Positions 5,045-29,432 of a DNA stretch of 64,000 nt are shown piece after piece. The translations under genes and the position numbers were made by a program. The notes beneath the pieces are model-generated. The model saw only the letters and a list, made by a program, of their open reading frames with translations, made no database searches and was not told where the DNA came from. The DNA is from a virus. Position 1 is the stretch's first letter; every line of letters begins with the position of its first letter. The stretch is from the IMG/VR virus record IMGVR_UViG_3300020056_000007. One strand, 5' to 3'.

Positions 5045-5047
5045 TGG

Positions 5048-5782: not shown

Positions 5783-5785
5783 TCT

Positions 5786-6036: not shown

Positions 6037-6056
6037 TTTTATAATGGAGAATGTAA

Positions 6057-9381: not shown

Positions 9382-9667
9382 ATGCTTAACAGAAAATAAA
9401 CCATTTGCATCGACTGCTGATGGTTATCTTATTCCATGTTGTTGGTGTGATAAAGTTTCTCAACACCCCGACTTACCTAAAGATCCTTTATTAGCTGATT
9501 TATTTGATGAAGAATTAAAAACAGAACATAATAGTATTTCGCATATATTAAAAAGTAAACAATGGAAACGATTTTATAAAGCTATAAAACTTGGTTATGA
9601 ATATGCACCTAAAAGATGTCAATATTATTGTTATAGAATAAATGAAATGCAAAAAAAATCTTTATAG
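9353..9667 (+). CDS. Cys-rich SPASM/Twitch-like Fe-S protein
   Basis: C...GYLIPCCWC...CQYYC, directly after the radical SAM gene. Confidence 0.6.
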   Translation: MTGEKKWNPKCLTENKPFASTADGYLIPCCWCDKVSQHPDLPKDPLLADLFDEELKTEHNSISHILKSKQWKRFYKAIKLGYEYAPKRCQYYCYRINEMQKKSL

Positions 9668-9705
9668 GCTATGTACTTTTCATAAACGATAATTATATAT
9701 ATTAT

Positions 9706-9751
9706 ATGGATGCCAATAGTGGGTCCATCTACAACCTTACTTAATAGGAGG
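9706..9751 (+). promoter_or_regulatory. Structured hsp20 leader (ROSE-like RNA thermometer candidate)
   Basis: Hairpin 9706-9728, then CCUUACU-uaau-AGGAGG hairpin pairing with the SD. Confidence 0.45.
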
Positions 9752-10231: not shown

Positions 10232-10433
10232 AGGTCTTTTCGATTTTCTTCAATCTTGGAACGCATACGTAAAGCGTCAAAGAAAAATCAATGAAACTGT
10301 GAAAGAATTATCACGGTTAACTGATTATGAATTGAATGATATTGGAATTGCCAGAGGCGATATTTATTCAATCGCTAAAGGCGATACTGATATGAAAAGA
10401 TCAGTAAACCAAAACTTGAAAGGATGGGTATAA
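10182..10433 (+). CDS. DUF1127 (YjiS-like) small protein
   Basis: RKINETVKELSRLTDYELNDIGIARGDI. Confidence 0.8.
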   Translation: MTQLVLEVSNFLTKPLEGLFDFLQSWNAYVKRQRKINETVKELSRLTDYELNDIGIARGDIYSIAKGDTDMKRSVNQNLKGWV

Positions 10434-10612
10434 TGACTGCATTAGTAATGAAATACACATTCGCACCTCTTCAAGGGTTTTGGTCCGGCTTTAATAATTT
10501 CTGTGAAATAGCAGGATATAGTAGAGCCGCAGCACATCTTGCTAATATGGGTTTGCACGAAGAAGCAAAACATTGTATGATGCAAGTAAAATCACTTAGA
10601 GGGGAGCGTTAA
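10424..10612 (+). CDS. Small hypothetical protein
   Basis: ORF coupled to the previous gene, followed by a GC hairpin. Confidence 0.55.
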   Translation: MGIMTALVMKYTFAPLQGFWSGFNNFCEIAGYSRAAAHLANMGLHEEAKHCMMQVKSLRGER

Positions 10613-10647
10613 GCTCCTCTCCTACACACAACACACAGGAGGCCAAA

Positions 10648-10884
10648 ATGGCAAATAACCCTTATCAAATTCGTTACGACGTATTGAATATGGCAAAAGA
10701 TATGCTTGATAAACAATACGATATTCAAATGGAAGTTGCTTATAAAGCAATGGACATGTATAAAGACAATGCTGAACAAGCACTAGAAGCTTATAAAAAT
10801 TATATTCCAAAGGCAATTACACCTGAGGAAATTAAAGCACAAGCAGATAAGCTTTATGAATTTGTCACAACAAAAGAAAAATAA
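10648..10884 (+). CDS. Small hypothetical protein
   Basis: Strong AGGAGG RBS; terminator follows. Confidence 0.7.
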   Translation: MANNPYQIRYDVLNMAKDMLDKQYDIQMEVAYKAMDMYKDNAEQALEAYKNYIPKAITPEEIKAQADKLYEFVTTKEK

Positions 10885-10887
10885 TGG

Positions 10888-10910
10888 AAAGGGGCTTTTG
10901 CCCCTTTTTT
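10888..10910 (+). terminator. Rho-independent terminator
   Basis: aaaGGGGC-tttt-GCCCC-tttttt. Confidence 0.85.
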
Positions 10911-10917
10911 CATTTAA

Positions 10918-10925
10918 TATAAATA
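10918..10925 (+). promoter_or_regulatory. T4-type late promoter for the endolysin
   Basis: TATAAATA 30 nt upstream of ATG 10956. Confidence 0.75.
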
Positions 10926-10955
10926 TACATACTAGCAACAAAAAAGGAAAATACT

Positions 10956-11423
10956 ATGGGATTTAATTTATCTTCACGAAGCCGTTTAAAATTAGAGGGT
11001 GTACACCCTGATATGGTTTCCGTGGTTGAAAGAGCCATTGAATTAACAAAAGTAGATTTTGGTGTAACATATGGCGTACGCTCAGTTGAAGAACAAGAAA
11101 AACTTGTTGCTTCGGGTCGTTCTCAAACAATGAAATCAAAACATTTAATTCAAGATTCAGGTTATTCTCACGCAGTAGATGTAGTAGCATATGATGGATC
11201 AGATGTAGTTTGGGAGCTTAATGTATATGACGATATTTGTGATGCTTTCAAACAAGCCGCTGAAGAGCTTGGAGTAGCGATTAAGTGGGGAGCCGCTTGG
11301 TCAGAAGGAGATATTAGGGACTACCCTGGATCTGCCGAAGATGCTATGAACGCATATATAGATCTTCGTCGCAGTCAAGGTCGGAGGCCTTTTATCGATG
11401 GACCGCATTTCGAACTTATGTAA
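10956..11423 (+). CDS. Endolysin, M15 family L-Ala-D-Glu peptidase
   Basis: LEGVHPD, SKH, HAVD, DGPHFEL motifs; late promoter. Confidence 0.85.
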   Translation: MGFNLSSRSRLKLEGVHPDMVSVVERAIELTKVDFGVTYGVRSVEEQEKLVASGRSQTMKSKHLIQDSGYSHAVDVVAYDGSDVVWELNVYDDICDAFKQAAEELGVAIKWGAAWSEGDIRDYPGSAEDAMNAYIDLRRSQGRRPFIDGPHFELM

Positions 11424-11751
11424 AGTATTATTAACTACAATTATTTTTTCTTTAATAGCGTGTCATCCTGTTTTATCACAGGAAAGAATACCCAAAGGCG
11501 TTATTATTCCTAAGATGACAAATCTCGCCTGTGGTGATTTAGAAAGTCTTGTAAATTATCTTAACGATTCAGGCCATGAAATGGTTTTTATGGGTGCTAC
11601 TATTAGTTCAGGTATTTTTGATTCTTTATGGATACATCATGAAAACAAACAATATGTTATGATAAGAGCTACCCCTGACAAATTAGAAGGCTGTATGCTT
11701 AGTAATGGAGTAATTGTTCATAACGGATTTGAGAAAAAAACTTTACTTTAA
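11398..11751 (+). CDS. Hypothetical exported protein
   Basis: N-terminal hydrophobic signal-like stretch. Confidence 0.5.
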   Translation: MDRISNLCKVLLTTIIFSLIACHPVLSQERIPKGVIIPKMTNLACGDLESLVNYLNDSGHEMVFMGATISSGIFDSLWIHHENKQYVMIRATPDKLEGCMLSNGVIVHNGFEKKTLL

Positions 11752-11783
11752 CGGTTTACATTTCCTCAAAATTGTGGTAGAAT
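11750..11783 (+). promoter_or_regulatory. Early-type promoter for gp43 (probably leaderless)
   Basis: aacggTTTACA-17-TAGAAT; ATG starts 7 nt after the -10. Confidence 0.75.
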
Positions 11784-11789
11784 TATATT

Positions 11790-14279
11790 ATGTCAAAGTT
11801 TTATACATCTGTCGTGCGATACGGCAATTCAATGTTATACCGTGGTTACGATTACTCTCGCGAACCAGTTTATCGTAAAGATAAATTTAAACCAGAATTC
11901 TTTGTTGTTTCAGATAAAGATACTGGTTGGCGTGGTTTAGATGGACAACAAATCGGTGCTTTACCGTTTGATTCCATGCGTGATGCTAAAGGTTGGCTAG
12001 ATCAAAATAAAGATGTAGCCAATCGTAAGATTTATGGTAATCCTAACTACATTCAACAATACATCACATCAAAGTTTCCAAAAGATATAAAATTCAATCG
12101 CGAATGGATTAACGTTTGTACGATTGATATTGAAACTGAATATGATGATGGCTTCCCTCATCCGTCACAAGCTGACCAACGTGTATTGGCTATTACTGTA
12201 AAGTCTAGTAAGTCTGAAAGATATATCGTTTGGGGTTATGGTGACTATGATGTAGATAAAGCTCTTATCAAACCAGTCAAATATATCAAATGTGTCAACG
12301 AAGAAGATCTGTTCGAACAATTTATTGAATATTGGTCTAACCCTCGTAATACACCGGATGTGATTACGGGTTGGAATACTCGTTTCTTTGATATACCTTA
12401 CCTCGTTAATCGTTGTGCTAAGATCCTCGGTTTGGAAGCTATTAAAAAGTTTTCGCCTTGGGGTATGATCGATTATCGTAAGATTACTCGCCGCGGCCGT
12501 GAGGAAGATGTTTATGATATTAAAGGTATCCAAACGCTGGATTATCTTGAATTATTCCAAAAGTTTGGATATACCTATGGACCACAAGAATCATACAAAC
12601 TTGATCATATAGCTTATGTCGTTCTTGGCGAAAAGAAACTTTCGTACGAAGAATCTGGTTCATTGCGCAATCTGTATAAAGATGATTTCCAAAAGTACAT
12701 TGACTATAACATGAAAGATGTGCAATTGGTTGATCGCCTTGAAGAAAAGCTTGGCCTTATCACATTGGCTATGACGATTGCGTATAAAGGCGGTGTCAAT
12801 TATCAAGATACATTTGGCACTACTGCGATATGGGAATCAATCATATATCGTAAACTCAACTCTCAAAAAGTGGTTCCACCTGCATTTGTCCCTGAAGCTC
12901 ATAAATCTAAGTTTGCTGGTGGCTATGTCAAAGAACCACAAACTGGTGCACATGACTGGGTGGTATCATTTGATTTGAATTCTCTATATCCTAATCTTAT
13001 TGTTCAATATAATATGTCACCTGAAACATTAGTCAATCAAAGTCAAATGAACAGTGTTGAATATTACCTCAGTGGTAATACAGTAACAGAAAATAAATTT
13101 GCGGTGGCAGCAAATGGTTCGACATATCGAAAAGATTTCGATGGTGTGATTCCTACTATTATTGAAGATTATTATTCTGAACGTGCAGCTGTAAAGAAAA
13201 TGCAGCTTGCTGCGGAAAAAGAATATCAACGGACTAAGAATGAAAGTCTTCAGTCTGAAATCAATACCCTTGGTAACCAACAGATGGCTATTAAAATTCT
13301 AATGAATAGTCTTTATGGTGCATTAGGCAATCAATATTTTAAGTATTTTGATCTCAGACTTGCTGAAGGTGTAACTTTGTCCGGTCAGCTCGCAATTCAG
13401 TGGGCTGAAAAAGCTATGAATATGGAGATGAACAATGTTCTCAAAACTGAAGACGTGGACTACGTTATTGCGATTGATACTGATAGTTTGTATATTAATA
13501 TGGGTCCTATTGTAAATAAATTCAAGCCTAAAGATCCTGTTAAATTCTTAGATAAAATATGTTCTGAACATTTTGAACCGGCATTAGCAAAGTCTTATGA
13601 TAAACTTTATTATAATATGAATGCTCATAAAAATCGTATGGTTATGGCTCGTGAAGTAATTGCTGATCGTGGAATATGGACCGCTAAGAAAAGATACATA
13701 CTCAATGTGCATAACTCTGAAGGTGTACAATATGCTGAACCTAAACTAAAGATTATGGGAATTGAAGCTATTAAGTCATCTACACCTGAAGTAGTTCGCG
13801 ACAAATTTAAAGAAGTATTTAAAATCATTTTATCTGGTTCAGAAGCTGAAACACAAAAATATATTGCTGACTTTAAACAACAATTTAGCAATCTACCACC
13901 AGAACAAGTAAGTTTTCCTCGATCAGTTTCAAACATTACAGATTGGATGGAACGTGGTTCATATAAGAAAGGTACACCTATTCATGTTCGTGGTTCTATT
14001 TTGTACAATAAATATCTCAAACAGAATAAGCTACAAAAGAAATATGAGCTTGCGGTAAATGGCGATAGAATTAAATTTACATATCTTCGTATGCCTAATC
14101 CAATTCATGAAAATATTATTGCATACCCTGATGTGTTACCTGAAGAATTTAAATTGCATAAGTACGTAGATTATGACAAGCAATTTGAAAAAACTTTCAT
14201 TGAACCACTTAACTTCATACTTAATGCAGTTGGTTGGTCAGCTGAAGAACAAGCAACGTTAGAGGATTTTTTCGTATAA
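11790..14279 (+). CDS. 43: Family B DNA polymerase gp43
   Basis: DIET exonuclease motif, [23 protein letters not shown]-terminal LEDFF clamp-binding motif. Confidence 0.97.
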
Positions 14280-14439: not shown

Positions 14440-14853
14440 ATGAGTGAAAATTGGGTAAAAGATATCAATGAAATGCACCAGAAATATGGTGTACATGATT
14501 GGTTTGAAAATAACAAAGATAACAAAGATCTTATGAAAAAGTATCTTATGTTTCGTCTTTTGATGTGTAATGAGGAATTGCATGAAACAATGCAAGCAAT
14601 TAATAATGGCGATCCCGAGGAAACCGTTGACGGTCTTATTGACCTTTGTGTTTTTGCTATCGGTACTCTCGACGTTTTTGGTGTAGATGCCAATAAAGCA
14701 TGGGATGAAATTTATAAAGCAAATATGGCCAAAAAAGCAGGCGTAAAACCTGGTAGACCAAATCGCTTTGGTTTGCCTGATTTATTAAAACCTGGTGGAT
14801 GGCAACCACCAAGTCATGAGGATAATCATGGAGATCTCTCTAACGCTCTTTAA
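14440..14853 (+). CDS. MazG-like all-alpha NTP pyrophosphohydrolase (possible dCTPase)
   Basis: NEELHET, ETVDGLIDLCVF, ANMAK, DLLKP; probable start at ATG 14440. Confidence 0.75.
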   Translation: MSENWVKDINEMHQKYGVHDWFENNKDNKDLMKKYLMFRLLMCNEELHETMQAINNGDPEETVDGLIDLCVFAIGTLDVFGVDANKAWDEIYKANMAKKAGVKPGRPNRFGLPDLLKPGGWQPPSHEDNHGDLSNAL

Positions 14854-17551: not shown

Positions 17552-17929
17552 ATGTCAAAAGAATCTCTAAAAGTACTTCAGAAAGCAGCTGAAGTACAAA
17601 CTAAAAAAGGTAATGATTACCAAAACCCAAACTCACGTGTAAAGCAAGCTGATTACTATCCACGTGGTTGTGCTACACTTCTTGATACAATGTATGCTAA
17701 AGTACTACGCATGCAGTCTGTACTTGAAGCAATGGAAAATGATCCTGACTATAAACCAAATTTTGAATCGCTTGAAGACTCTTGCATTGATATTATCAAT
17801 TATGCATCTTTCTTTGCTGCATATATGAAAAATGGTATTGATGGACAAGATCCTAATCGTGATTTTCTAAATAGGCCGAAAGCAAAAAATGTCAATACCT
17901 CACGTACGCAGGACAATGAATCCGCCTAA
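17552..17929 (+). CDS. Small alpha-helical nucleotide-modification-associated protein
   Basis: KKGNDY...DSCIDIINYASF pattern; at the head of the DNA-modification cluster. Confidence 0.5.
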   Translation: MSKESLKVLQKAAEVQTKKGNDYQNPNSRVKQADYYPRGCATLLDTMYAKVLRMQSVLEAMENDPDYKPNFESLEDSCIDIINYASFFAAYMKNGIDGQDPNRDFLNRPKAKNVNTSRTQDNESA

Positions 17930-18626
17930 GAATTATATATTTGATGTAGATGGTACATTAACACCTAGCCGTGGCCGTATTGATGTAAACTTTTCTTGGT
18001 GGTTTGCTAAGTTTGTAGAAAATAATAATGTATATCTTGTAACTGGTAGCGATAGACCAAAAACTATTGAACAAATTGGTGAATACATTTATGGAAAATG
18101 TCAGCGCGTTTATCAATGCGCAGGTGCAGAAGTTTACAAAAATGAATTGTGTATTTCTAGAAGTGAGTGGATAGGTTCATCAGCTCTTATTGAAGCATGC
18201 GAAAAAGAACTTATATCTAATCAATTTCCTTTAAGAACCGGTAATCATATTGAGCAAAGAACGGGATTATTAAATTTTAGTATTATTGGCCGGAATTGTA
18301 CTCTTGGTGAAAGAAAACTTTATGTCAAATATGATGAAGAAAATAATGATCGTGAAAAAATAGCTAGAAGACTAAGAAAATCATTTCCAGATTTAGGATT
18401 TAAAGTTGCTGGTGAAACCGGTATTGATATTACACCTAAAGATTGCAATAAATCTCAAATTCTAAAAGATTTTGGTTCTTATGATCATATATACTTTTTT
18501 GGAGATAAAACAGGTCCGGGAGGTAATGACTATGAAATATATGAAGCTATCAATGACATGCCATGTGGTAAAAGTTTTGCGGTAAACGGATGGAAAGAAA
18601 CATGGAATACACTAAAAAGCTTGTAG
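17889..18626 (+). CDS. HAD-family phosphomannomutase-like enzyme
   Basis: FDVDGTLT, VTGSD, IEQRTG, FFGDKTGPGGNDYEI. Confidence 0.85.
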   Translation: MSIPHVRRTMNPPKNYIFDVDGTLTPSRGRIDVNFSWWFAKFVENNNVYLVTGSDRPKTIEQIGEYIYGKCQRVYQCAGAEVYKNELCISRSEWIGSSALIEACEKELISNQFPLRTGNHIEQRTGLLNFSIIGRNCTLGERKLYVKYDEENNDREKIARRLRKSFPDLGFKVAGETGIDITPKDCNKSQILKDFGSYDHIYFFGDKTGPGGNDYEIYEAINDMPCGKSFAVNGWKETWNTLKSL

Positions 18627-19036
18627 GTTTTACTTGCAGTACTTTTGATTTATTACATGCTGGGCATGTAGCTATGTTACGTGAAGCTAAAGCGCAGTGT
18701 GATTATCTTATTGTTGGATTACAGGTGGATCCTTCAATAGATAGAAAAGAAAAAAATGCACCTGTTCAAACGATTGTCGAAAGGCAAGCTCAACTTTCTG
18801 CTATTAAATATGTAGACGAAGTTTTAGTTTATACCACAGAATCTGATTTGCTCGACATTCTTAATATGTATCCGATTGATATCCGTATACTCGGAGAAGA
18901 ATATCGAGATAAAGAATTCACAGGAAAAGACCAATGCAGGAGACGAGGAATACAGTTATATTTCAACAAGAGAGATCACCGGTTTTCGACCAGCGATTTA
19001 AGGATGAGGGTTTCGGAATGTTCGAAAAGAAAATAG
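18590..19036 (+). CDS. Glycerol-3-phosphate cytidylyltransferase-like
   Basis: TFDLLHAGH, YLIVGL, YVDEV, FSTSDLR. Confidence 0.85.
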   Translation: MERNMEYTKKLVGFTCSTFDLLHAGHVAMLREAKAQCDYLIVGLQVDPSIDRKEKNAPVQTIVERQAQLSAIKYVDEVLVYTTESDLLDILNMYPIDIRILGEEYRDKEFTGKDQCRRRGIQLYFNKRDHRFSTSDLRMRVSECSKRK

Positions 19037-19839
19037 CAATTGTTGGAATGGGCTTCGTAGGTAGCGCAGTTGCTTATGGATTTAATCATCCATTTGTAGA
19101 ACAACAGCATATTGATCCAAAGTTAGGTAATAGCATCATGGATATCCATGATGATACAGATTTTATTTTTGTCTGTGTACCAACACCTATGGATGATTTT
19201 AGCATTGTTCGAGAAGTGATGGAAGAATTATATTCAAATGATTTTCCAGCGGTAATTATCTTAAAATCAACTGTGCCACCAAATATCATTGAAGAAATGA
19301 TTCACCCAGACATGGTATATAATCCAGAATTTCTTACTGAGAAATCTGCGGCAGAGCAATTCATTAATCCTAATTTCCATATTCTTGGTGGAAGTGATGA
19401 TGCTATTGGAGATGTATTAGATTTATATGAAAGATATAGTCTATGTAATCCGGCACCGTTTTTTAATATGACGGCTGAAGAAGCATCAATTGTAAAATAT
19501 ACAATCAATTCTTTCTTAGCAACTAAAGTCACATTCTTTAATCAGATGTATGATTTTTGTAAGCAATGGCAAGCAAATCCTTCTATAGTTTTTAATGCTG
19601 TAGGTGCTGATCCAAGAATTGGCCACGGTCACACTAAAGTTCCAGGCTTTGATAATAAACGAGGATTTGGTGGAGCGTGTTTCCCAAAAGACACAAAAGC
19701 AATTACAGATATTGCTGGCACAGGTGTACTATCTCTTATCGAGCATGTCATTAAAGTTAATAATGATTATAGAAATCAATATGAAAGAGATGATAGAGAA
19801 AAAGAACAAAATATAGTTTACTTTCCAAAGGATGTATGA
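18934..19839 (+). CDS. UDP-glucose/GDP-mannose 6-dehydrogenase family
   Basis: GMGFVG, CVPTP, KSTVPP, NPEFL, GFGGACFPKD; probable start at ATG 19018. Confidence 0.88.
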   Translation: MQETRNTVIFQQERSPVFDQRFKDEGFGMFEKKIAIVGMGFVGSAVAYGFNHPFVEQQHIDPKLGNSIMDIHDDTDFIFVCVPTPMDDFSIVREVMEELYSNDFPAVIILKSTVPPNIIEEMIHPDMVYNPEFLTEKSAAEQFINPNFHILGGSDDAIGDVLDLYERYSLCNPAPFFNMTAEEASIVKYTINSFLATKVTFFNQMYDFCKQWQANPSIVFNAVGADPRIGHGHTKVPGFDNKRGFGGACFPKDTKAITDIAGTGVLSLIEHVIKVNNDYRNQYERDDREKEQNIVYFPKDV

Positions 19840-19845
19840 TATAAT
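19817..19845 (+). promoter_or_regulatory. Early-type promoter for the gp42-like gene
   Basis: gTTTACT-17-TATAAT. Confidence 0.55.
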
Positions 19846-20541
19846 ATGCTTATGTACAGTGTAAAAGATATTAGAGAGTTTTTCATAGGTGAGCTAAAAG
19901 ATGAAGCTTTTACCATGGATAAAACTGGTCAAAAAACAATTGAAATGATTGGTGCTTCATTTATAGCAAGTGAACCAGCTATTTTTGGTACGCCTAATCA
20001 TGAATATATCGCAAAAGAACTTGCGTGGTATGAGTCACAATCAACAAACATTTATGATATTAATAAAGAGTCTGGCGCTGATGCTCCTACTGCTTGGAAA
20101 TATACTGCAAATACTCACGGAGAAATCAATTCTAATTACGGAAAATTGATTTTCGATGATATATATTATAACCAGTACGGAAACGTACTGGACGAGTTGA
20201 TTAATAATCCAGATGGGCGTAGAGCTAGTATGATCTATAATCGTCCTTCTATTTGGGTTGAATATAATGAAAACAATAAAAACGATTTTATTTGCACTAA
20301 TAGTGTTACGTATTACATACGAGATAATCTTTTACATGCTGTAGTTCAAATGAGATCTAATGATGTTATTTTTGGTTATAAAAACGATTATGCTTGGCAA
20401 CGTTACGTAATGGATCGTTTAATAATGGATTATAATGGATTAAATATGTATGATAGCGGAGATAAAATAGAGCTTGGTCACATTGTTTGGCAAGTTCAAA
20501 ACTTACATGTTTATGAAAGGCATTTCCATCTTGTTAAATAA
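19846..20541 (+). CDS. 42: dCMP hydroxymethylase-like (T4 gp42, thymidylate synthase fold)
   Basis: INSNYG, DFICT, QMRSNDVIFGYKNDYAWQ (Asp at the cytosine-specificity position), LHVYERHF. Confidence 0.8.
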   Translation: MLMYSVKDIREFFIGELKDEAFTMDKTGQKTIEMIGASFIASEPAIFGTPNHEYIAKELAWYESQSTNIYDINKESGADAPTAWKYTANTHGEINSNYGKLIFDDIYYNQYGNVLDELINNPDGRRASMIYNRPSIWVEYNENNKNDFICTNSVTYYIRDNLLHAVVQMRSNDVIFGYKNDYAWQRYVMDRLIMDYNGLNMYDSGDKIELGHIVWQVQNLHVYERHFHLVK

Positions 20542-20968
20542 ATGGAAATATCGATATTTGGATTTAGCAGATCAAGTAGGTTCTTGGTCTAAAGATCCAT
20601 CTCGTAAAATAGGAGCAATAGCAGTTGGTAAACATGGCCAAGTGTTAGCACAAGGTTATAACGGATTTCCTCGAGGTATTTCTGACATGGATGAACGTTA
20701 TAATGATCGACAACTCAAATACAAATATGTAGTACATGCAGAAATGAACTGTATTTACAATGCAGCTGATAATGGCGTATCATTAAGAGGTGCAGATTTG
20801 TACGTAACAGGTTTGCCAACCTGTTCAGATTGCGCGAAAGGAGTTATACAAGTTGGCATTAAGCGAGTCTTCATGCGAGCTGATGTTCCAGAAGCATGGA
20901 TAGACTCATGGAAATTAACACAAAGTTTCTTTAATGAAGCAGGAGTCAAATATGAACTTATTGGATAA
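20474..20968 (+). CDS. cd: dCMP deaminase
   Basis: SKDP, GYNGFPRG, HAEMN, PTCSDCAK. Confidence 0.88.
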   Translation: MVTLFGKFKTYMFMKGISILLNKWKYRYLDLADQVGSWSKDPSRKIGAIAVGKHGQVLAQGYNGFPRGISDMDERYNDRQLKYKYVVHAEMNCIYNAADNGVSLRGADLYVTGLPTCSDCAKGVIQVGIKRVFMRADVPEAWIDSWKLTQSFFNEAGVKYELIG

Positions 20969-21194
20969 AGTAAAAGCAAGTACCGAATCACCCGATGACG
21001 ACAACTCATATACTCAAGAAAGATATTATGAATATATGTTAAGGCGTTATCGAGAAGAAAAAGAATCTCAAACTCCTATTAAATCTGATCTTCAACGAGA
21101 AGCTGAAATATCAGATTTAAAAGAAAGAATTAAAAAACTTGAAGTCGATATGGCTCATGTCCAATTAGAACAAAAAACAACTCTATATGGGTAA
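20934..21194 (+). CDS. Hypothetical protein
   Basis: ORF ending just before a terminator. Confidence 0.5.
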   Translation: MKQESNMNLLDKVKASTESPDDDNSYTQERYYEYMLRRYREEKESQTPIKSDLQREAEISDLKERIKKLEVDMAHVQLEQKTTLYG

Positions 21195-21202
21195 TTGATT
21201 AG

Positions 21203-21227
21203 GTGAGGGGAAATTTCCCCTCACTTT
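21203..21227 (+). terminator. Rho-independent terminator
   Basis: GTGAGGGGAA-at-TTCCCCTCAC-ttt. Confidence 0.7.
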
Positions 21228-21239
21228 AAAACTTAACGG

Positions 21240-21268
21240 TGTACATTCTACTAAAAATTTGATAGAAT
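21240..21268 (+). promoter_or_regulatory. Early-type promoter for the glycosyltransferase operon
   Basis: aacgg-TGTACA-17-TAGAAT. Confidence 0.65.
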
Positions 21269-21295
21269 AATAAAAATAACAGTTAGGACTATATT

Positions 21296-22573
21296 ATGAA
21301 AATTGGCGTAATTCTTGGCCGCGGTGTAGAAGGCGTTGGCCTTACTAAGAATGTAGTAGAATTTCAAAAATTATTTCCAGGCGTAGAAGTATTTGCCACA
21401 ATTGATAAATTGTGGCCACGTATGAATTCTATGAATTTTAAAGTAAATTATTTTCGTGGATCTGATTGGGATACTATTAGTAAGCCTGCTAAAAAATTTC
21501 CCAATTTACTTACCTGTACTCAAGTAATTGATCGTATAAATGAATTAGATGCTTGTATTGTTTGGAGTGTACCTTCAAAATCTCATCCAGAAGATATGGT
21601 TGAAAATTTTATTAATTTACTTGATAAAATTAAAATACGTAAATCATTAGTTCAAGTTGATCATAAAATTCATTCAATTAATCGTAATGCACGATTATCT
21701 GAAATTTGTTCTAAAATGAATGTTCTTATGTGTCATTCAATTGATAATCCATTTGGTCAATGGGTAAAGAAAAATAATATTAAAGTCCCTCTTACTAATA
21801 TGGGTGTAGGATTTAATTTCAATAAAGATTATTGGAAACCAATTGAACAGCAAGATCCTCGTTATATTCGTTGGGTTGGTAGATCTGCCATGTGGAAAGG
21901 TCCAGATCTTATGATTGATTTACACAATGATTGGTTTCGTAAAAGCAATTTCATTACAGTATTAGAAGGTTTAGAAGCATCTATCCAATGGCCACTCATT
22001 GTATATAAAAATCCAAAAGAAATGTCTGATAGACGAGATGTGATTAATTATTTCAGACCTGAAAAAGGTATAGATGAAAATTCTTCTAGAGATCCACAAT
22101 ATGGTACTGAAAAAGAAAACTCAGGCGCTTATCTTTATACATCATATATTCATAGTGAAATGATGGAACGTATGAGTCTTAGCGGGTTTGGTGCAGATTT
22201 GATGAACTTTAAAGAAAATGTATATGGTAATAATGTAGAATATTGTCATACTGATGCATTTGCTGCTGGTGTTATTCCATTATTCCATAAACACTTTTGT
22301 GATAATGTTATACACCGTAAACAAGGAAAACCAATTTCTGAGTGCATAAATACTGGTACGTTGGGTATAGATAAAACTAATGCACGTGATGTATTTCAGA
22401 CAATGATGAATCTTAAAAATGATAATGGACTTAGATCTGATATGCGAGAACAAATGTTTGAATTTTGGAAAGAACATTGCGATGCTGAAATAGTTTATAA
22501 AGACATTCTCGACAAAACACTTAATTTTAACGAGCTTGAAGAAGAAGCTACATTGGAGGAGTTTTTTGCATGA
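21296..22573 (+). CDS. DNA glycosyltransferase, T4 alpha-glucosyltransferase-like
   Basis: N-terminus GRGVEGVGLTK resembles T4 AGT; WVGR..WKG, EY; C-terminal LEEFF clamp-binding motif. Confidence 0.7.
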   Translation: MKIGVILGRGVEGVGLTKNVVEFQKLFPGVEVFATIDKLWPRMNSMNFKVNYFRGSDWDTISKPAKKFPNLLTCTQVIDRINELDACIVWSVPSKSHPEDMVENFINLLDKIKIRKSLVQVDHKIHSINRNARLSEICSKMNVLMCHSIDNPFGQWVKKNNIKVPLTNMGVGFNFNKDYWKPIEQQDPRYIRWVGRSAMWKGPDLMIDLHNDWFRKSNFITVLEGLEASIQWPLIVYKNPKEMSDRRDVINYFRPEKGIDENSSRDPQYGTEKENSGAYLYTSYIHSEMMERMSLSGFGADLMNFKENVYGNNVEYCHTDAFAAGVIPLFHKHFCDNVIHRKQGKPISECINTGTLGIDKTNARDVFQTMMNLKNDNGLRSDMREQMFEFWKEHCDAEIVYKDILDKTLNFNELEEEATLEEFFA

Positions 22574-23322
22574 AAATTGTAATTACTGGATCAAGAGGGT
22601 TTATTGGTTCCCATCTTAAAAATCATTATGAAAACAAACATCAAATTGTTGAATGGGATAGAAGTATTAAAAAAAACATTGAAGATTTTTCTTTGTCATC
22701 TGGTGTTGGTGCAGTAGTTCATTTAGCTGCACTTGCTGATGTAAGAAGAAGTATTGCTGAACCCGATTTATATTGGCAAAATAATGTAATAAATACTAAA
22801 AGAATACAGGATATGTGTGCAATGCATAACGTAAAGTTATTATATGCATCTTCATCATGTATTCACAATTGGAGTTTATCACCGTATGGAACCTCAAAGA
22901 AAGTCAACGAAGCAACAGCTCATCCAGGCCAAGTTGGTCTCCGCTTTACCACTGTTTATGGCGATGGTGCTCGGGATACTATGTTTATGGGCCGGCTTCT
23001 TTCCGGTGATCTTCAGTATAGTACTAACCATATTCGTGATTTTATTCATGTTAGTGATGTTGTCTCAGCGATTGATTCAATTATTTTTTCTGAGCATGAA
23101 CCCAAACATGGCGCTTATGATATTGGGACTGGAAATGGTAATCCTGTATCAGCTCTTGCTAAATTGGCTGGATATGATATTCCCGTAAAAGATGGGGATC
23201 CATGCGAAGCACAGGATAATACTGCAGATATTACACCAATGCAAGAAGAGTTTGGTTGGGAACCAAAGGTTGATGTAAAAAAATATATTATTAATCATCA
23301 ATATGAAGGAACTCCTGTTTAA
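22570..23322 (+). CDS. NAD-dependent sugar epimerase/dehydratase
   Basis: TGSRGFIG, YASSS, YGTSK, RFTTVYG, RDFIHVSD. Confidence 0.88.
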   Translation: MKIVITGSRGFIGSHLKNHYENKHQIVEWDRSIKKNIEDFSLSSGVGAVVHLAALADVRRSIAEPDLYWQNNVINTKRIQDMCAMHNVKLLYASSSCIHNWSLSPYGTSKKVNEATAHPGQVGLRFTTVYGDGARDTMFMGRLLSGDLQYSTNHIRDFIHVSDVVSAIDSIIFSEHEPKHGAYDIGTGNGNPVSALAKLAGYDIPVKDGDPCEAQDNTADITPMQEEFGWEPKVDVKKYIINHQYEGTPV

Positions 23323-24512
23323 TGAATTATGCAAGTATAGTCCCGCTCATTGGTGGTGAGACTATCGCCATGGAGCGGGTCTTTAATAAAAAACCGGAGT
23401 ATATTTTAAGTTATGAACCGTTTCAATCTAATGACGACCATTTGGTCAAATATTACAAATCAGTTCCCTACCATCTTATCGATGATGGTAGGGAACCTGT
23501 GTTTTCTAATGTCGATGTTATTAATACCGTATGTCCTTGTGCTGGTCTTAGCAGTTTATCTACTACAGCTAATTCTGATTCTGCTGCTAACGATTGGATG
23601 CGCACCACAGCTACTTATGTATTGGGTACACTCAAACCTAAAGTATTCTGGGGCGAAAACGCGCCAAGACTTGCTTCTAAAATGGGACAACCGATTGTCG
23701 AAGATCTCAGACAAATTGGGAGAGATAACGGATACACTTTCTCAATATATAAGACGAAGTCTATCCTTCATGGATTAAGTCAAACTCGTGATAGAACTTT
23801 TTATTTTTTCTGGAAAGGTGAAAAAGTACCAAAATTCGAATATATAAAAAGGAAGCACGAGAAAATTGAGGATACGATACGTTCCGTGAAACGAGATCAA
23901 GCTGATCCAATGAACATCCTAACTAATGATCGTGTTCCAACTGAGAATGCTTATTATAAGTATATCCTTCAAGAAATTGAAGGTGGTATGGATCATGCTA
24001 CATTTTCTTCTAAAATAGAAAAATCTACAAACGTATTAGATCATATTGAAAAACATACAACTTATGACAAAGTAGCTAAATGGATGGCTAAAAATGGCTA
24101 TCATAAAGAAGCTGATCGTTGTAATAAAATGTATGATAAATTAAAAGCCGGTTTTAATATTATGAGAAAAAATGTAGAAATTCCAAAAGATTATATTGGA
24201 GCATTTGTAGGACATTATCCAACACAACTTACTCATCCAGATGAAGATCGTTTTCTTACAATTCGTGAATGTATGTCTATTATGAAATTACCTAATGACA
24301 TGATATTACAAGGCGGTAAAAAAAATATAAATCATATTTGTCAAAACGTGCCCGTAACTACTGCTATGGATATGGCAGAGCATGTATTAAAATTTATTGA
24401 TGGTAGATTATCAAATCAAATGATTGATACTGATTATGTAGTTCAATGTAATAAATCTCAAAAAATTCAATATCAGCAAAATAGTTTACAACTCGATGAA
24501 TTTATGGTATAA
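23322..24512 (+). CDS. C5 cytosine DNA methyltransferase-like protein with atypical motif I
   Basis: PCAGLS (IV), GENAP (VI), QTRDR (VIII), RFLTIRE, NVP; motif I reads IVPLIGG; C-terminal LDEF. Confidence 0.75.
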   Translation: MNYASIVPLIGGETIAMERVFNKKPEYILSYEPFQSNDDHLVKYYKSVPYHLIDDGREPVFSNVDVINTVCPCAGLSSLSTTANSDSAANDWMRTTATYVLGTLKPKVFWGENAPRLASKMGQPIVEDLRQIGRDNGYTFSIYKTKSILHGLSQTRDRTFYFFWKGEKVPKFEYIKRKHEKIEDTIRSVKRDQADPMNILTNDRVPTENAYYKYILQEIEGGMDHATFSSKIEKSTNVLDHIEKHTTYDKVAKWMAKNGYHKEADRCNKMYDKLKAGFNIMRKNVEIPKDYIGAFVGHYPTQLTHPDEDRFLTIRECMSIMKLPNDMILQGGKKNINHICQNVPVTTAMDMAEHVLKFIDGRLSNQMIDTDYVVQCNKSQKIQYQQNSLQLDEFMV

Positions 24513-24535: not shown

Positions 24536-25576
24536 ATGTCAATAATGGATAAATTGAAAAAGAATAGTAAAGTAGAATATACTAATGTTCTTGCAGATAG
24601 TAAATTTTTTACTGAAAAAGATATGGTACCAACAGATGTGCCAATGATTAATGTTGCATTATCGGGTTCAGTTGATGGCGGTGTTGCACCAGGTCTTACT
24701 GTATTAGCTGGTCCATCAAAACATTTTAAAACTTCATTTGGTCTTATTATGGCCTCAGCATATTTGAAAAAATATCCTGAAGCTGTATTATTATTTTATG
24801 ATTCTGAATTTGGTTCACCACAATCATACTTTCAACAATACGATATTGATACAACTCGTGTTCTTCATACACCAATTACAAATGTAGAAGAACTTAAATT
24901 TGATGTTATATCACAACTTGAAGGTTTGGATAGAGAAGATAAAGTTATCATAATGATTGATTCAGTTGGTAACTTAGCATCGAAAAAAGAATTAGAAGAT
25001 GCTATCAATGAAAAATCTGTAGCAGATATGTCAAGAGCAAAAGCTCTTAAAGGCTTATTTAGAATGGTAACACCATATTTAAATATGAAAGATATTCCTT
25101 TACTTGCTGTAAATCATACTTATATGGAAATTGGTTTATTTCCAAAAGCAGTGGTGTCTGGTGGAACGGGTATATACTATAGTGCGGATAATATTTGGAT
25201 TCTTGGTAGACAACAAGATAAAAAAGGTACAGAAATTCAAGGTTACCATTTTGTAATTAATGTTGAGAAAAGTAGATATGTTAAAGAAAAGTCTAAGATT
25301 CCTATTACTGTTTCCTGGGACGGTGGTGTTCGCAATTACAGCGGCCTTCTTGATGTGGCTCTCGCTGGTGGCTACGTTACTAAACCTTCCAACGGCTGGT
25401 ACGCTGAAGTTAATCAGGAAACTGGTGAAATTGGCTCAAAGGTTAGGTATGATCAAACTTTAGAGGAAGCCTTTTGGATACCAATTTTTGAAGACACAGA
25501 TTTTAAAGAATTTTTGAAAAAGCAATATGCTATTGGTTATAAAGCAGAAGTGGAGCTAGATTTTGAAACAGAATGA
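24536..25576 (+). CDS. uvsX: RecA-like recombinase UvsX
   Basis: AGPSKHFKT, YDSEFG, DSVGNLAS, SGGTG. Confidence 0.95.
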   Translation: MSIMDKLKKNSKVEYTNVLADSKFFTEKDMVPTDVPMINVALSGSVDGGVAPGLTVLAGPSKHFKTSFGLIMASAYLKKYPEAVLLFYDSEFGSPQSYFQQYDIDTTRVLHTPITNVEELKFDVISQLEGLDREDKVIIMIDSVGNLASKKELEDAINEKSVADMSRAKALKGLFRMVTPYLNMKDIPLLAVNHTYMEIGLFPKAVVSGGTGIYYSADNIWILGRQQDKKGTEIQGYHFVINVEKSRYVKEKSKIPITVSWDGGVRNYSGLLDVALAGGYVTKPSNGWYAEVNQETGEIGSKVRYDQTLEEAFWIPIFEDTDFKEFLKKQYAIGYKAEVELDFETE

Positions 25577-25829: not shown

Positions 25830-26064
25830 GTTTAGAATTGGCATATTTAATCTTTTAAGAAAGATTATAGGTGGAAGCAGTGTACTTCTAGCGGTCATAT
25901 ATACACTAGGTCATATAATTATTGCCATGACTTGCAACTACTTAATAACCGGAGCTAGATTAGATCTTGCTGCAATTGATGCACTTATAGAACCTATCAT
26001 AAATGGATTTTGGTTTTATATTTTGCATAAGATTTGGAAAGGATTACAAAATGAAAGCAGGTAA
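25822..26064 (+). CDS. Small membrane protein (DUF2061-like)
   Basis: YTLGH...IEPIINGFWFYILHKIW. Confidence 0.55.
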   Translation: MNEFRIGIFNLLRKIIGGSSVLLAVIYTLGHIIIAMTCNYLITGARLDLAAIDALIEPIINGFWFYILHKIWKGLQNESR

Positions 26065-26401
26065 AGTATGGGGTACAACTGAGCTTATTGAAGCAAATGG
26101 TGCCTTAGAATTTCATCGCATTGAAATGAAAAAGAATGGAGTATGTTCTAAGCATCTTCATAAGTATAAATGGAACGGATTCTATGTAGAGTCAGGTAAA
26201 ATGCGAGTAAAAGTTTGGCAAAAAGATTATGATTTAATTGATGAAACTATTATTGGTCCGGGTCAATATACGAAAGTAAAACCAGGACTATACCACCAGT
26301 TTGAATGTCTTCAAGACGGCGTAGCGTATGAATTATATTGGGCAGAATTTAATCATAATGATATTGTGCGTGAAACAACTGGATTCTTAGGTAATCAATG
26401 A
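26051..26401 (+). CDS. Cupin protein (sugar isomerase-like)
   Basis: KVWG, CSKHLH, FYVESG, YHQF. Confidence 0.7.
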   Translation: MKAGKVWGTTELIEANGALEFHRIEMKKNGVCSKHLHKYKWNGFYVESGKMRVKVWQKDYDLIDETIIGPGQYTKVKPGLYHQFECLQDGVAYELYWAEFNHNDIVRETTGFLGNQ

Positions 26402-27762
26402 ATAATAAAATAGAACAAACTATACTTCGAAATTTGCTTAGCGATGAGAAGTATATGAGGCGTGTATTGCCTTTTATTAAACCTGAATACTTTGAAGGTC
26501 CATATCGTACTTTATTCAAAGAAGCTGGTAAGTATGTAGCAAAGTATAATAAATTGCCTACCGCTGAATCATTTATGGTTGAGCTGAATAATTCAGATGT
26601 AAGTGGTGATGCTTACACCGCAGCATGTGAAATTGCTGAAACATTATTTGTTGGTGATTCAGTTGATGAACAATGGCTTATTGATAACACTGAAAAGTGG
26701 TGTCAAGATCGTGCAATCTATAATGCTGTAATGGAATCAATTACTATCATTGATGGTAAGCATGATAAATTAACTAAGAATAGTCTTCCATCTCTTTTAC
26801 AAGATGCACTAGCTGTAACATTCGATGCTTCAGTTGGACATGACTATACAGAAGATGCAGGATTAAGATATGACTTTTATCACACTGAAGAAGATAGAAT
26901 TCCTTTTGATTTGGAATACTTTAATAAAATTACTAAAGGAGGTGTACCTAATAAAACCCTCAACATTGCTTTGGCTGGGACTGGGGTTGGCAAATCTTTG
27001 TTTATGTGTCACGTTGCTGCTAACGCATTACTTGAAGGAAGGAACGTTCTTTACATAACAATGGAAATGGCAGAAGAAAGAATAGCAGAACGTATTGATG
27101 CTAATTTACTTAATGTAGCCATTGATCAATTAGATAATTTATCTAAAGATATGTTTACAACTAAAGTTGCTGACCTTGCGCGTAAAACAACTGGTAAATT
27201 AATTATTAAAGAATATCCCACTGGTTCTGCACATGCTGGTCATTTTAGAGCATTATTAAATGAATTAAAATTAAAGAAACAATTCTTACCTGATATTATC
27301 TTTATTGATTATTTAAATATTTGTGCATCTAGTAGAATGAAAGGAATGGGCGGTGCTATCAATTCATACAACTACATTAAAGCAATTGCTGAAGAACTAC
27401 GAGGTCTTGCAGTGGAATACGACCTACCGATATTCTCTGCAACGCAAACGACTCGCAGTGGTTATAGCAACTCGGATGTTGGGCTTGAAGATACCTCTGA
27501 GTCTTTTGGATTACCCGCTACCGCAGACCTCATGTTCGCACTCATCTCAACCGAAGAACTTGAAAAATCACGTCAAATTATGGTTAAGCAACTTAAAAAT
27601 CGTTATAATGATCCTACTCATCATAAAAGATTTGTTATTGGTATTGATCGAAGTCGTATGCGCCTTTATGATGTGGATGATTCCCAACAAACGTTAACTG
27701 ATGATACACCAGTTTTTGATAAAACTCCAGCCGGTAAAAAGTTTGAAGATTTTAAATTATGA
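26398..27762 (+). CDS. 41: Replicative helicase gp41
   Basis: AGTGVGKS, TMEMAEE, IFIDY, SATQTTR, QLKNRY. Confidence 0.96.
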   Translation: MNNKIEQTILRNLLSDEKYMRRVLPFIKPEYFEGPYRTLFKEAGKYVAKYNKLPTAESFMVELNNSDVSGDAYTAACEIAETLFVGDSVDEQWLIDNTEKWCQDRAIYNAVMESITIIDGKHDKLTKNSLPSLLQDALAVTFDASVGHDYTEDAGLRYDFYHTEEDRIPFDLEYFNKITKGGVPNKTLNIALAGTGVGKSLFMCHVAANALLEGRNVLYITMEMAEERIAERIDANLLNVAIDQLDNLSKDMFTTKVADLARKTTGKLIIKEYPTGSAHAGHFRALLNELKLKKQFLPDIIFIDYLNICASSRMKGMGGAINSYNYIKAIAEELRGLAVEYDLPIFSATQTTRSGYSNSDVGLEDTSESFGLPATADLMFALISTEELEKSRQIMVKQLKNRYNDPTHHKRFVIGIDRSRMRLYDVDDSQQTLTDDTPVFDKTPAGKKFEDFKL

Positions 27763-28694
27763 GATATTTATTAGTAGGTTCTACATTTGAAGAAGATAAT
27801 AGCTATCCAGCTGTACAACTTCAAAATTATAAATTTGTATTTGATAATGCAGATATTGTAACTATAAGAAAACCAGAAGCAGATAAGAAAAATCCAATCT
27901 ATTATAAAAAATTAATGGATGAATTTAATAAGTATAATTTAGATGATTATGATTTTGTTATTGGTGTCGGAGATTTTTATTGGTCCGGTTTAAATAAAGC
28001 TCATGGATTTCGTAAACCAAATACAACCGCTAAATTTGTAGAGTTTAATAATCGTCCAGAAATAATGAGTGATGTTCCTGATTATGTGTTATATCATTTA
28101 AATATACCTACAACAACATATGGCTGTAAATATGTAGGACAAGGATTAGATCCATATAAATTGTCTATATCTAATCCAGATAAAGACTTTTTGAGAGTTT
28201 TAGTAGATCATAGAATGAATAATAGAAATGATAATACAGATAATATTTTGTCATATCTTGAAGGCGTATCTAAAAACATTCCTCTTAAAGTAATTCATCA
28301 TTCGAATTCTGGATTGGTTGAAAATGCATTTATAGAATCAGATGAATCTAAACAATTACCAACTTATAAAAAATATCCATATTTAGATATGTGTAAACTA
28401 TATAGCGAAATAGATATATTCTTTGCTACTCATAGAGAAACACAAGGATTAACTGGACTAGAAGTAGCAATGTGTGGTGGGCTTCCGATAATAGGATATA
28501 ATATGTATCCACAAGAAATTAAAAATAAACTACCGCACTATGCATATGGGTCTTTAGGAGACATTAATTGGACATCAGTAAAATCATTATGTTCTAATAA
28601 ATTTAGAATAGAACGAAGAGAAAAAATTAAAAAACATTTTGGTTTAAATAAATTTAAAAAAAGAGTATTAAATGCTCTTGAAATTTCACTTTAA
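27759..28694 (+). CDS. Putative GT-B glycosyltransferase
   Basis: ETQGLTGLE (EX7E) motif. Confidence 0.6.
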   Translation: MRYLLVGSTFEEDNSYPAVQLQNYKFVFDNADIVTIRKPEADKKNPIYYKKLMDEFNKYNLDDYDFVIGVGDFYWSGLNKAHGFRKPNTTAKFVEFNNRPEIMSDVPDYVLYHLNIPTTTYGCKYVGQGLDPYKLSISNPDKDFLRVLVDHRMNNRNDNTDNILSYLEGVSKNIPLKVIHHSNSGLVENAFIESDESKQLPTYKKYPYLDMCKLYSEIDIFFATHRETQGLTGLEVAMCGGLPIIGYNMYPQEIKNKLPHYAYGSLGDINWTSVKSLCSNKFRIERREKIKKHFGLNKFKKRVLNALEISL

Positions 28695-28718: not shown

Positions 28719-29432
28719 ATGTCAGAAGGCAAACTATTGCAAAAAGTAAAATTAATTAGTTATTCCCAACCAGTATCGGAAGGAGTTGATGTCGATGACG
28801 CTCAAGATCTCATCGCTTATTGCGCCCGTGTTTCCAATCCATCGAACCAATCTAATAAAAAGACAGCTGAAAGACTCTTGTCATACCTTGCCAAAGAAAA
28901 CCACTGGTCACCGTTCGAAATGGTCTCAGCTTGCCTTGAAATCGAAACAACCCGTGACATCGCAAGACAAATCTTAAGACATAGAAGTTTTAGCTTTCAA
29001 GAATTTAGTCAACGATATGCTGATCCTCTTAAAGATTTAGATATGGTTAAACGTGAAGCTCGTCTTCAAGACTATAGCAATCGTCAAAATTCTATTGAAA
29101 TTGAAAATGATCCTTCTATTCAATTAGATTTAACAAAACAAAATTTGATTACTGAGTGGGGTCGTAGACAACACGGAATTATGAATCAAGCTAGAGATGT
29201 ATATCAATGGGCAATAGAAAATGGTATTGCTAAAGAACAAGCACGTTCTGTTTTACCAGAAGGAAATACAGTATCAAGAATTTATATGAATGGTACTATT
29301 CGTTCTTGGATGCATTATATTGAATTAAGATCAGGTAATGGAACTCAAAAAGAACACCGTGAGGTTGCAATTGCTTGTGCTAAAGAATTGGAAAAGGTAT
29401 TTCCAATCATACATAAATTCATAAAAAAATGA
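28719..29432 (+). CDS. thyX: Flavin-dependent thymidylate synthase
   Basis: HWSPFE, RHRSFSFQEFSQRY, TQKEHRE. Confidence 0.95.
   Translation: MSEGKLLQKVKLISYSQPVSEGVDVDDAQDLIAYCARVSNPSNQSNKKTAERLLSYLAKENHWSPFEMVSACLEIETTRDIARQILRHRSFSFQEFSQRYADPLKDLDMVKREARLQDYSNRQNSIEIENDPSIQLDLTKQNLITEWGRRQHGIMNQARDVYQWAIENGIAKEQARSVLPEGNTVSRIYMNGTIRSWMHYIELRSGNGTQKEHREVAIACAKELEKVFPIIHKFIKK

Follow-up and report, generated by a model that had tools for sequence, protein, structure and literature searches.

Gene content of the locus

We analysed a 64,000-nucleotide stretch of DNA (hereafter the window) from the IMG/VR virus record IMGVR_UViG_3300020056_000007, in which a gene cluster upstream of UvsX had been predicted to encode a new cytosine hypermodification pathway, namely 5-hydroxymethylcytosine (hmC) carrying a sugar other than glucose. 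The window (approximately 33% G+C) is part of the genome of an uncultured marine T4-like phage, and the presence of every function in it was read from the genes alone, using homology, motifs, and gene order. No near-identical DNA from cultured phages was detected among 50,697 phage records. The nearest cultured relative was phage C48C1 (Kyanoviridae), whose polymerase was 55% identical to that of the window; cyanophage polymerases were approximately 47% identical.

All module and replication genes were located on the + strand. Downstream of the gp43 family-B DNA polymerase (11790-14279; Pfam DNA_pol_B, 2.4e-30), the order was a MazG/PRA-PH-type nucleoside triphosphate (NTP) pyrophosphatase (14440-14853), a primase-like protein, three small unknown open reading frames (ORFs), a DUF1599/NMAD1-like small all-alpha protein (17552-17929; phrog_18404 'hydrolase', 1.3e-11), a eukaryotic-type phosphomannomutase (PMM) of the HAD-IIB class (17889-18626), an HxGH nucleotidyltransferase (18590-19036), a short nucleoside diphosphate (NDP)-sugar 6-dehydrogenase (19018-19839, in an ORF opening at 18934), a thymidylate synthase (TS)-fold protein (19846-20541), a deoxycytidine monophosphate (dCMP) deaminase (20474-20968, start codon uncertain), and an 86-amino-acid ORF. 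These were followed by a homologue of the T4 DNA alpha-glucosyltransferase (AGT; 21296-22573), a 250-amino-acid extended short-chain dehydrogenase/reductase (SDR; 22570-23322), a protein with the C5 cytosine DNA methyltransferase fold (23322-24512), and UvsX (24536-25576). Every gene named in the original prediction was present at its stated position, including the phosphomannomutase-like HAD enzyme (PF03332, 6.7e-33, DVDGT intact), the cytidylyltransferase (PF01467 or CTP_transf_like, 1e-13, a family of cytidylyl- and adenylyltransferases), the dCMP deaminase (PF00383, 5.7e-18), the upstream MazG-like pyrophosphatase (PRA-PH, 1.9e-9), and, elsewhere in the window, the flavin-dependent thymidylate synthase ThyX (28719-29432; RHRSFS motif; Thy1, 1.3e-42 for a clade homologue). 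That gene list was incomplete, as it omitted the C5-methylase and the DUF1599-like protein within the interval and a second glycosyltransferase of the GT-B fold (27759-28694) outside it.

The TS-fold protein shared approximately 53% identity with the gp42 proteins of enterobacterial T4-like phages and matched the T4 enzyme (1b5e) at 7.2e-71. Alignment to 1b5e revealed the motifs DFIC and RSND...KNDYAW, and the Asp of KNDYAWQ, correctly picked out beforehand as the cytosine-specifying residue, aligned with D179 of T4 gp42. According to a 2026 study, some gp42-like proteins are flavin-dependent 5-hydroxy-dCMP synthases, marked by Asn at position 169 of E. coli ThyA, whereas dCMP hydroxymethylases are diagnosed by an acidic residue at ThyA L143, Asp at N177 (for cytosine specificity), and a retained D169 (PMC13326640). 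In the window protein, the catalytic Cys was accompanied by Asp at both 169 and 177 and by an acidic residue at 143, a signature common to all 24 full-length gp42 homologues of the clade described below. Because these diagnostic residues are those of a hydroxymethylase, the protein is assigned as a true T4 gp42-type dCMP hydroxymethylase and the base is predicted to be hmC rather than 5-hydroxycytosine (5hoC) or 5-methylcytosine (5mC). Homology and the diagnostic residues both support the formation of hmC before replication. The 5hoC chemistry of RB69 was ruled out by the Asp retained at ThyA 169 in the RSND motif. A TET route to hmC was also rejected: although the window encodes a C5-methylase, it yielded no match to the TET protein of a related contig, L043 (IMGVR_UViG_3300017741_002088), and Pfam identified no TET protein at 14-29 kb.

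The dCMP deaminase and ThyX can together supply thymidine monophosphate (dTMP). The MazG-type protein is a candidate deoxycytidine triphosphatase (dCTPase) analogous to gp56, and the DUF1599-like protein is probably a second protein of the NTP-pyrophosphatase type; no similarity to gp56 was found for either. Homologues of the MazG-type protein occurred in cytosine-replacing phages (the XP12 group, Pootjesviridae, and Pelagibacter phage Kolga), and in the 5mC phage XP12 and related phages the two window proteins had their counterparts in the two halves of a single hydrolase gene. The DUF1599-like protein was also 51% identical to a protein of Serratia T4-like phages. In Pootjesviridae and Kolga, the pyrophosphatase-type homologues adjoined TS homologues. 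These occurrences fit a dCTPase role. The MazG-type gene adjoined polB in every locus of the hmC clade and in L043 but was absent from C48C1-type loci, and these relatives lacking it also lacked base-replacement genes. In the cultured siphovirus Kolga (MT375529.1, 29055-30682), both pyrophosphatase-type homologues lay beside the TS homologue, which suggests cytosine replacement there too.

Glycosyltransferase, clamp tails, and the conserved module

The AGT homologue scored 104.6 bits against PF11440 (7.7e-30), for which the cut-off is 25, and aligned over the full length of family GT72. It matched T4 AGT (1xv5) at 1.5e-35 over residues 1-406 and was 28% identical to T4 alpha-GT across all 400 residues of the latter. 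In addition, it carried 19 extra C-terminal residues ending in TLEEFFA; the window polymerase ended in TLEDFFV, so the gp43-like tail reported earlier for the glycosyltransferase was real. The extra tail was kept across the clade, in which the AGT and polymerase tails were alike and co-varied (TLEDFFV with TLE(D/E)FFV, and TL(D/E)SFFT with GLEAFF). The C5-methylase ended in LQLDEFMV, or in TLDKF(L/M) in one sub-clade, and the gp55 sigma factor (960-1565) ended in DLDEFMK. All four tails belonged to one motif type and varied together between sub-clades. In T4, gp43 and gp55 bind the gp45 sliding clamp by their C-terminal tails. The window gp45 (5105-5782), which shares 53% identity with the C48C1 protein annotated as processivity factor, is the presumed docking platform here, and T4 alpha-GT co-purifies with gp45 (PMC13216743). 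Given the polymerase-like tail and this association in T4, glycosylation at the replication fork by a clamp-docked AGT, as originally suggested, appears reasonable, and the same would hold for the methylase; the glycosylation of hmC by the AGT is backed by homology, whereas docking on gp45 is suggested by the motif. DNA-modifying enzymes tethered by their tails to a sliding clamp would be a natural example of such an arrangement.

To place the locus among its relatives, we scanned IMG/VR and retrieved 41 contigs encoding AGTs 70-77% identical to that of the window, onto which the window genes were mapped. The AGT gene was followed by the SDR gene in each of the 39 loci that continued past it, and the SDR gene by the C5-methylase gene in 38 of 38. 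Upstream, gp42 preceded by the DUF1599-like gene was found in all 26 loci that reached far enough. In some sub-clades (contigs L021, L027, L029-L034, and L041), an MT-A70 adenine methylase (4.4e-29), a 186-amino-acid 2-oxoglutarate-Fe(II) oxygenase (7e-15), or both were located between the AGT and SDR genes.

The C5-methylase (PF00145, 1.1e-16) kept the PC, ENA, QxRxR, and QNVP motifs and the clamp-type tail in 35 homologues. Its S-adenosylmethionine-binding motif I was degenerate, with VPLIGGE in place of FxGxG. This enzyme is thus constant in the module of a phage expected to have no unmodified cytosine. A terminator scan flagged, on both strands, a 13-bp inverted repeat with an 8-nt loop at 23463-23496, inside the methylase coding sequence.

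L043 carried the short dehydrogenase and a short SDR before UvsX, beside a different DNA cassette (3863-9721) that occupied the slot of the hmC cassette and consisted of a Tet_JBP oxygenase, a GATase_6 amidotransferase, a GNAT protein, a 333-amino-acid protein ending in the clamp-type tail LDNFMI, and P-loop nucleotide kinase 3. This cassette looks like a thymidine hypermodification set. Kinship of its 333-amino-acid protein with AGT was rejected by BLASTP.

Sugar donor and alternative explanations

The SDR (PF01370, 1.1e-22) contained the NAD motif TGSRGFIG, the serine stretch SSSC, and YGTSK (YxxxK), motifs that we assign to epimerases; acid/base motifs of the kind found in a 4,6-dehydratase or decarboxylase were lacking. 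The gene had been described as an epimerase/dehydratase; the first half of this description held, and no dehydratase signature was found. Its best match in the PDB was the uridine diphosphate (UDP)-glucuronate (GlcA) 4-epimerase MoeE5 (6kv9; 4.3e-16). In the UDP-GlcA 4-epimerase of B. cereus (BcUGAepi), Arg185 holds the carboxylate of galacturonate (GalA), and loss of this contact yields a decarboxylase (PMC12338863). Using residue numbers derived from an alignment of 6zl6, we found S, S, C, T, and R in the window SDR at BcUGAepi positions Thr126, Ser127, Ser128, Thr178, and Arg185, with GalE E-values close to those of uronate epimerases. The Thr and Arg lie in TTVYGDGAR, as in MoeE5 and the canonical epimerase of C48C1, and were kept across the clade with a shift of 1-2 residues in ten members. 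The C-terminal substrate-domain motifs GD...NTAD...GW were also retained. With the carboxylate-holding Thr and Arg kept in the SDR and motifs of dehydratases and decarboxylases lacking, a uronic acid is favoured, and the simplest chain would lead from UDP-glucose through UDP-GlcA to UDP-GalA. A pentose and a 6-deoxysugar are unlikely, since the serine stretch is SSSC and not TDE or STSE, presumably the contrasting motifs, and since the Arg, the loss of which would give a decarboxylase, is kept. Among the special NDP-sugars proposed earlier, only the uronic acid therefore fits the Thr178 and Arg185 equivalents; the pentose and deoxysugar do not.

The short dehydrogenase matched a UDP-glucose dehydrogenase (4a7p) at 4e-25 over residues 84-303 of 446 and a GDP-mannose dehydrogenase at 3e-14, and was 46% identical to its C48C1 homologue. 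The catalytic Cys motif GGACFPKD was kept. In comparison with BcUGAepi (6zl6), MoeE5 (6kv9), and UDP-glucose 6-dehydrogenase, the window pair shows equivalents of Thr178 and Arg185, the S/Y/K triad, and the NAD motif in its SDR and the catalytic Cys motif in its dehydrogenase; it differs in the length of the SDR, in the replacement of Ser128 by Cys, and in the truncation of the dehydrogenase considered below.

T4 glucosylates hmC using host UDP-glucose. The window resembles this T-even system (gp56, gp42, gp1, cd, and alpha-GT) in its gp42 orthologue, dCMP deaminase, full-length GT72 homologue, clamp logic, and T4-like replisome. However, neither a gp56 nor a gp1 homologue was recognised in the window, where MazG-type proteins would stand in for the dCTPase, and dTMP would be derived from ThyX instead of a Td-type enzyme. 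The window also encodes sugar-nucleotide enzymes and a second GT-B, it has no beta-GT, and its AGT, with an explicit polymerase-like tail, is fixed beside an SDR epimerase and a C5-methylase.

A second precedent is provided by phage gene clusters reconstituted on 5hmC DNA, in which glycosyltransferases strictly required an adjacent epimerase and the products carried hexose, N-acetylhexosamine, or hexuronate (433 amu) (bioRxiv 10.1101/2023.12.21.572611). In the same preprint, an HAD/APH enzyme, a cytidylyltransferase, and a GT-B gave heptosyl-5hmC, and an adduct of 3-deoxy-D-manno-octulosonic acid (Kdo) on 5hmC was also described (bioRxiv 10.1101/2023.12.21.572611). The window shares with these subclass II biosynthetic gene clusters the glycosyltransferase beside an SDR epimerase (39/39 loci), the accompanying C5-methylase, the hexuronate precedent, and, as an extra set, an HAD enzyme, a cytidylyltransferase, and a GT-B. 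It differs in that 5hmC is made there on DNA by a C5-methyltransferase and TET and here as a nucleotide by gp42; moreover, the window glycosyltransferase belongs, like that of T4, to GT72 and carries a clamp tail, and the epimerase is a compact 250-amino-acid form. Since the phage-encoded synthesis of hexuronate-, heptose-, and Kdo-5hmC is already published there, the claim of a new type of pathway does not hold. Instead, the window couples the known glycosyltransferase-epimerase logic to a T4-like route at the nucleotide level and to a GT72 enzyme, and, as judged from its genes, is a variation on a known anti-restriction strategy.

In RB69, DLP3, and Thanatos, arabinose is attached to 5hoC (PMC13326640). 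These phages, too, are T4-like, with a TS-fold first enzyme, a phage-made NDP-sugar, and several glycosyltransferases. In contrast, the window TS homologue keeps Asp at ThyA 169 and is not the D169N hydroxylase; arabinose-5-phosphate isomerase, kinase, and MurU-type transferase are lacking; and the first transferase is of the AGT type, not the GT4 type.

From these data, we consider it very probable that hmC is synthesised and then glycosylated. MazG-type pyrophosphatases would remove dCTP, the gp42 orthologue would convert dCMP to hydroxymethyl-dCMP (as indicated by homology and the diagnostic residues), the dCMP deaminase and ThyX would provide dTMP, and the DNA would be replicated with hmC. 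The AGT homologue would then dock on gp45 by its polymerase-like tail and glycosylate hmC behind the fork, the clamp-tailed C5-methylase fold enzyme being a further fixed member of the module. A sugar other than glucose is plausible because the SDR gene follows the AGT gene in all 39 loci and published glycosyltransferase-epimerase pairs need their epimerase. The donor is most likely not glucose but probably the product of the ever-adjacent compact SDR, acting as a UDP-hexuronate 4-epimerase that converts UDP-GlcA to UDP-GalA; a short UDP-glucose dehydrogenase encoded by the phage would supply the UDP-GlcA here and in one sibling, and the host would do so in the rest of the clade. On balance, we lean towards the supply of a non-glucose donor through the SDR, and the reading as a whole, hmC decorated with a non-glucose and probably acidic sugar, is slightly favoured; its narrower form, in which the sugar is galacturonate, is tentative. 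If true, abundant marine T4-like phages would carry a negatively charged sugar on every cytosine, which would affect restriction and CRISPR evasion, recognition by type IV enzymes, and the recovery and base-calling of virome DNA. The module would then combine a compact GT72 enzyme using a new donor with minimal dehydrogenase and epimerase enzymes.

Several observations weigh against this reading. The SDR is only 250 amino acids long, compared with approximately 320-345 for its relatives (about 70-90 residues shorter), and its affinities are divided: GalE enzymes followed MoeE5 closely in the PDB, and the NCBIfam scores for GalE (7e-21) and heptose 6-epimerase (5e-18), both far below curated cut-offs, were near those for uronate epimerases. 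The dehydrogenase, identified beforehand as an NDP-sugar 6-dehydrogenase, is indeed present but consists of the NAD and central domains only (PF03721 and PF00984); of the three domains that define a UDP-glucose 6-dehydrogenase, the C-terminal UDP-binding domain is missing. Among the other clade loci, the dehydrogenase was found in one (L035), PMM in two, and the nucleotidyltransferase in four, and L035 was the only other contig in which the three occurred together. Because these genes are rare while the AGT-SDR-C5-methylase arrangement is constant, the fixed unit consists of the pyrophosphatases, gp42, AGT, SDR, and C5-methylase, and the other sugar genes are accessory. Furthermore, the short SDR family occurred in about 80 cultured marine phage records, and the complete genomes of P-TIM68 (PMM, nucleotidyltransferase, cupin, and SDR) and Pelagibacter phage Mosig (SDR) contained neither gp42 nor AGT. 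In C48C1 and four IMG/VR relatives, a canonical full-length UDP-GlcA 4-epimerase and the same short dehydrogenase directly preceded UvsX, and no gp42, AGT, or recognisable GT1 or GT2 family gene was detected in the C48C1-type phages. As homologues of the sugar genes also occur in phages whose complete genomes lack gp42 and AGT, that these genes serve DNA is something we infer; the original claim that the sugar enzymes feed DNA modification is not supported as stated, PMM, the cytidylyltransferase, and the dehydrogenase being accessory and having homologues in P-TIM68 or C48C1. Since the dehydrogenase-SDR pair precedes UvsX in the C48C1-type phages and in L043 without the hmC cassette, the pair is older than that cassette at this site, a hot spot for DNA-modification cassettes, so the adjacency of AGT and SDR may reflect a common insertion hot spot. 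Finally, a P-loop scan of the window, which is only part of the genome, recognised no gp1-type hydroxymethyl-dCMP kinase; the sole candidate was a 154-amino-acid APS-kinase-like protein (1562-2026).

Alternatively, the phage may make plain T4-style glucosyl-hmC from host UDP-glucose, in which case the SDR, dehydrogenase, PMM, nucleotidyltransferase, cupin, and GT-B would be auxiliary metabolic genes remodelling host envelope glycans or sugar-nucleotide pools. Homologous gene sets of cyanophages are assumed to act in this way. In favour of this alternative, P-TIM68 and Mosig carry such homologues without gp42 and AGT; the dehydrogenase-epimerase pair has the same position in C48C1-type phages without hmC genes or a glycosyltransferase; clade members can do without three of the sugar genes; and the enzyme to which the AGT aligns from end to end is proven to use UDP-glucose. 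However, the SDR was never lost beside the AGT in 39 loci despite turnover of the surrounding genes, the glycosyltransferase-epimerase pairs with experimental activity on 5hmC have exactly this architecture and dependence, and the AGT may use another donor than T4 a-gt, with which it shares only 28% identity. We therefore regard glucosyl-hmC as the main alternative, though a doubtful one. Less probable still is a heptose or manno-configured sugar as the main DNA sugar, in which a 6(7)-phosphate to 1-phosphate mutase activity would fall to PMM and the formation of an ADP- or CDP-sugar to the HxGH enzyme, the SDR would be an HldD-like epimerase, and AGT or the GT-B would carry out the transfer. 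The best NCBIfam match of the nucleotidyltransferase to a heptose-1-phosphate adenylyltransferase domain, the second-best match of the SDR to heptose 6-epimerase, and the P-TIM68 cluster (nucleotidyltransferase, cupin, phosphoheptose isomerase, short SDR, and glycosyltransferase) point in this direction, as does the reported synthesis of heptose-5hmC by an HAD enzyme, a cytidylyltransferase, and a GT-B (bioRxiv 10.1101/2023.12.21.572611). In contrast, most clade members lack PMM and the nucleotidyltransferase, while AGT and SDR are fixed; no phosphoheptose isomerase was found in the window; the SDR motif near Arg185 is of the uronate-epimerase type and not the RYFNVYGPRE of HldD; and all family scores are far under the curated cut-offs, making this explanation improbable. 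Tailoring of the sugar on DNA, with AGT adding glucose that the truncated dehydrogenase and compact SDR then oxidise or epimerise, would account for the loss of nucleotide-holding parts from both enzymes (the UDP-binding domain of the former and about 70-90 residues of the latter). It is nevertheless very hard to credit, as the SDR keeps its substrate-domain motifs, the same short dehydrogenase is paired with a full-length canonical UDP-GlcA 4-epimerase in C48C1-type phages, and neither enzyme has a clamp tail.

Accessory sugar genes and neighbouring features

PMM matched phosphomannomutases of the PDB at 1e-33 over its full length and shared 45-48% identity with its homologues in the cyanophages S-SSM7 and P-TIM68. 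The HxGH nucleotidyltransferase was nearest to ethanolamine- and glycerol-phosphate cytidylyltransferases and the heptose-1-phosphate adenylyltransferase domain (ethanolamine-phosphate cytidylyltransferase 3elb, 1.2e-24; rfaE_dom_II, 4.4e-23, and TagD, 4e-18, both below cut-offs), and was 31% identical to its P-TIM68 homologue. A small cupin, possibly part of this accessory set, was encoded at 26003-26401 (Cupin_2, 2.3e-7) and was 29% identical to the P-TIM68 cupin that adjoins the nucleotidyltransferase there. It was unrelated to the cupin preceding the nucleotidyltransferase in contig L025.

The second GT-B, a 311-amino-acid ORF (27759-28694) between the gp41 helicase (26398-27762) and ThyX, was assigned from language-model features, which matched GT4 clusters at 0.98, and from an AlphaFold 2 (AF2) model (pLDDT 70), which matched only GT-B transferases, including the DNA glycosyltransferase 9ir0 of phage HY126. 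It was lineage-specific, with no relative in IMG/VR and only five among 5.8 billion proteins; one metagenome sibling encoded it on a contig that ended before the sugar genes. The gp41-ThyX junction was a second variable slot, occupied by the GT-B in the window and by a carbamoyltransferase in L035 (IMGVR_UViG_3300012953_005164), in which a KdsA-like DAHP_synth_1 gene also lay between UvsX and gp41 (10260-13699 for both). L035 is the closest sibling with PMM, the nucleotidyltransferase, and the dehydrogenase, and both carbamoylation of hmC and Kdo on 5hmC are on record in the literature.

The accessory branch of PMM, the HxGH nucleotidyltransferase, cupin, and GT-B might provide a second, manno- or heptose-type sugar or serve another glycan. 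That these genes extend the glycan on hmC is unlikely in our estimation. Somewhat less likely again is a specific two-sugar glycan of a kind so far undescribed on hmC. Here, GalA supplied by the truncated dehydrogenase and epimerase of the phage would be attached by the clamp-tethered GT72 enzyme; PMM and the HxGH enzyme would generate an ADP- or CDP-sugar, from which the GT-B would transfer a second residue of the manno or heptose type; and the C5-methylase fold enzyme, with its degenerate motif I, would act on hmC DNA other than by methylation.

A scan for sigma-70-like promoters gave no excess over shuffled sequences. Between gp55 and gp47, the 154-amino-acid P-loop kinase (adenosine phosphosulfate (APS)-kinase/AAA_18-like) was followed by a 118-amino-acid CTP_transf_like protein (1562-2277); C48C1 lacks the kinase gene and has no ORF between gp55 and gp47. 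The two genes could encode a NadR-like set for NAD salvage or a nucleotide kinase. In addition, a gene of the IMPDH/GMP-reductase family (2.3e-69) was located at 6996-7985, directly after the first clamp-loader gene (6057-6995).

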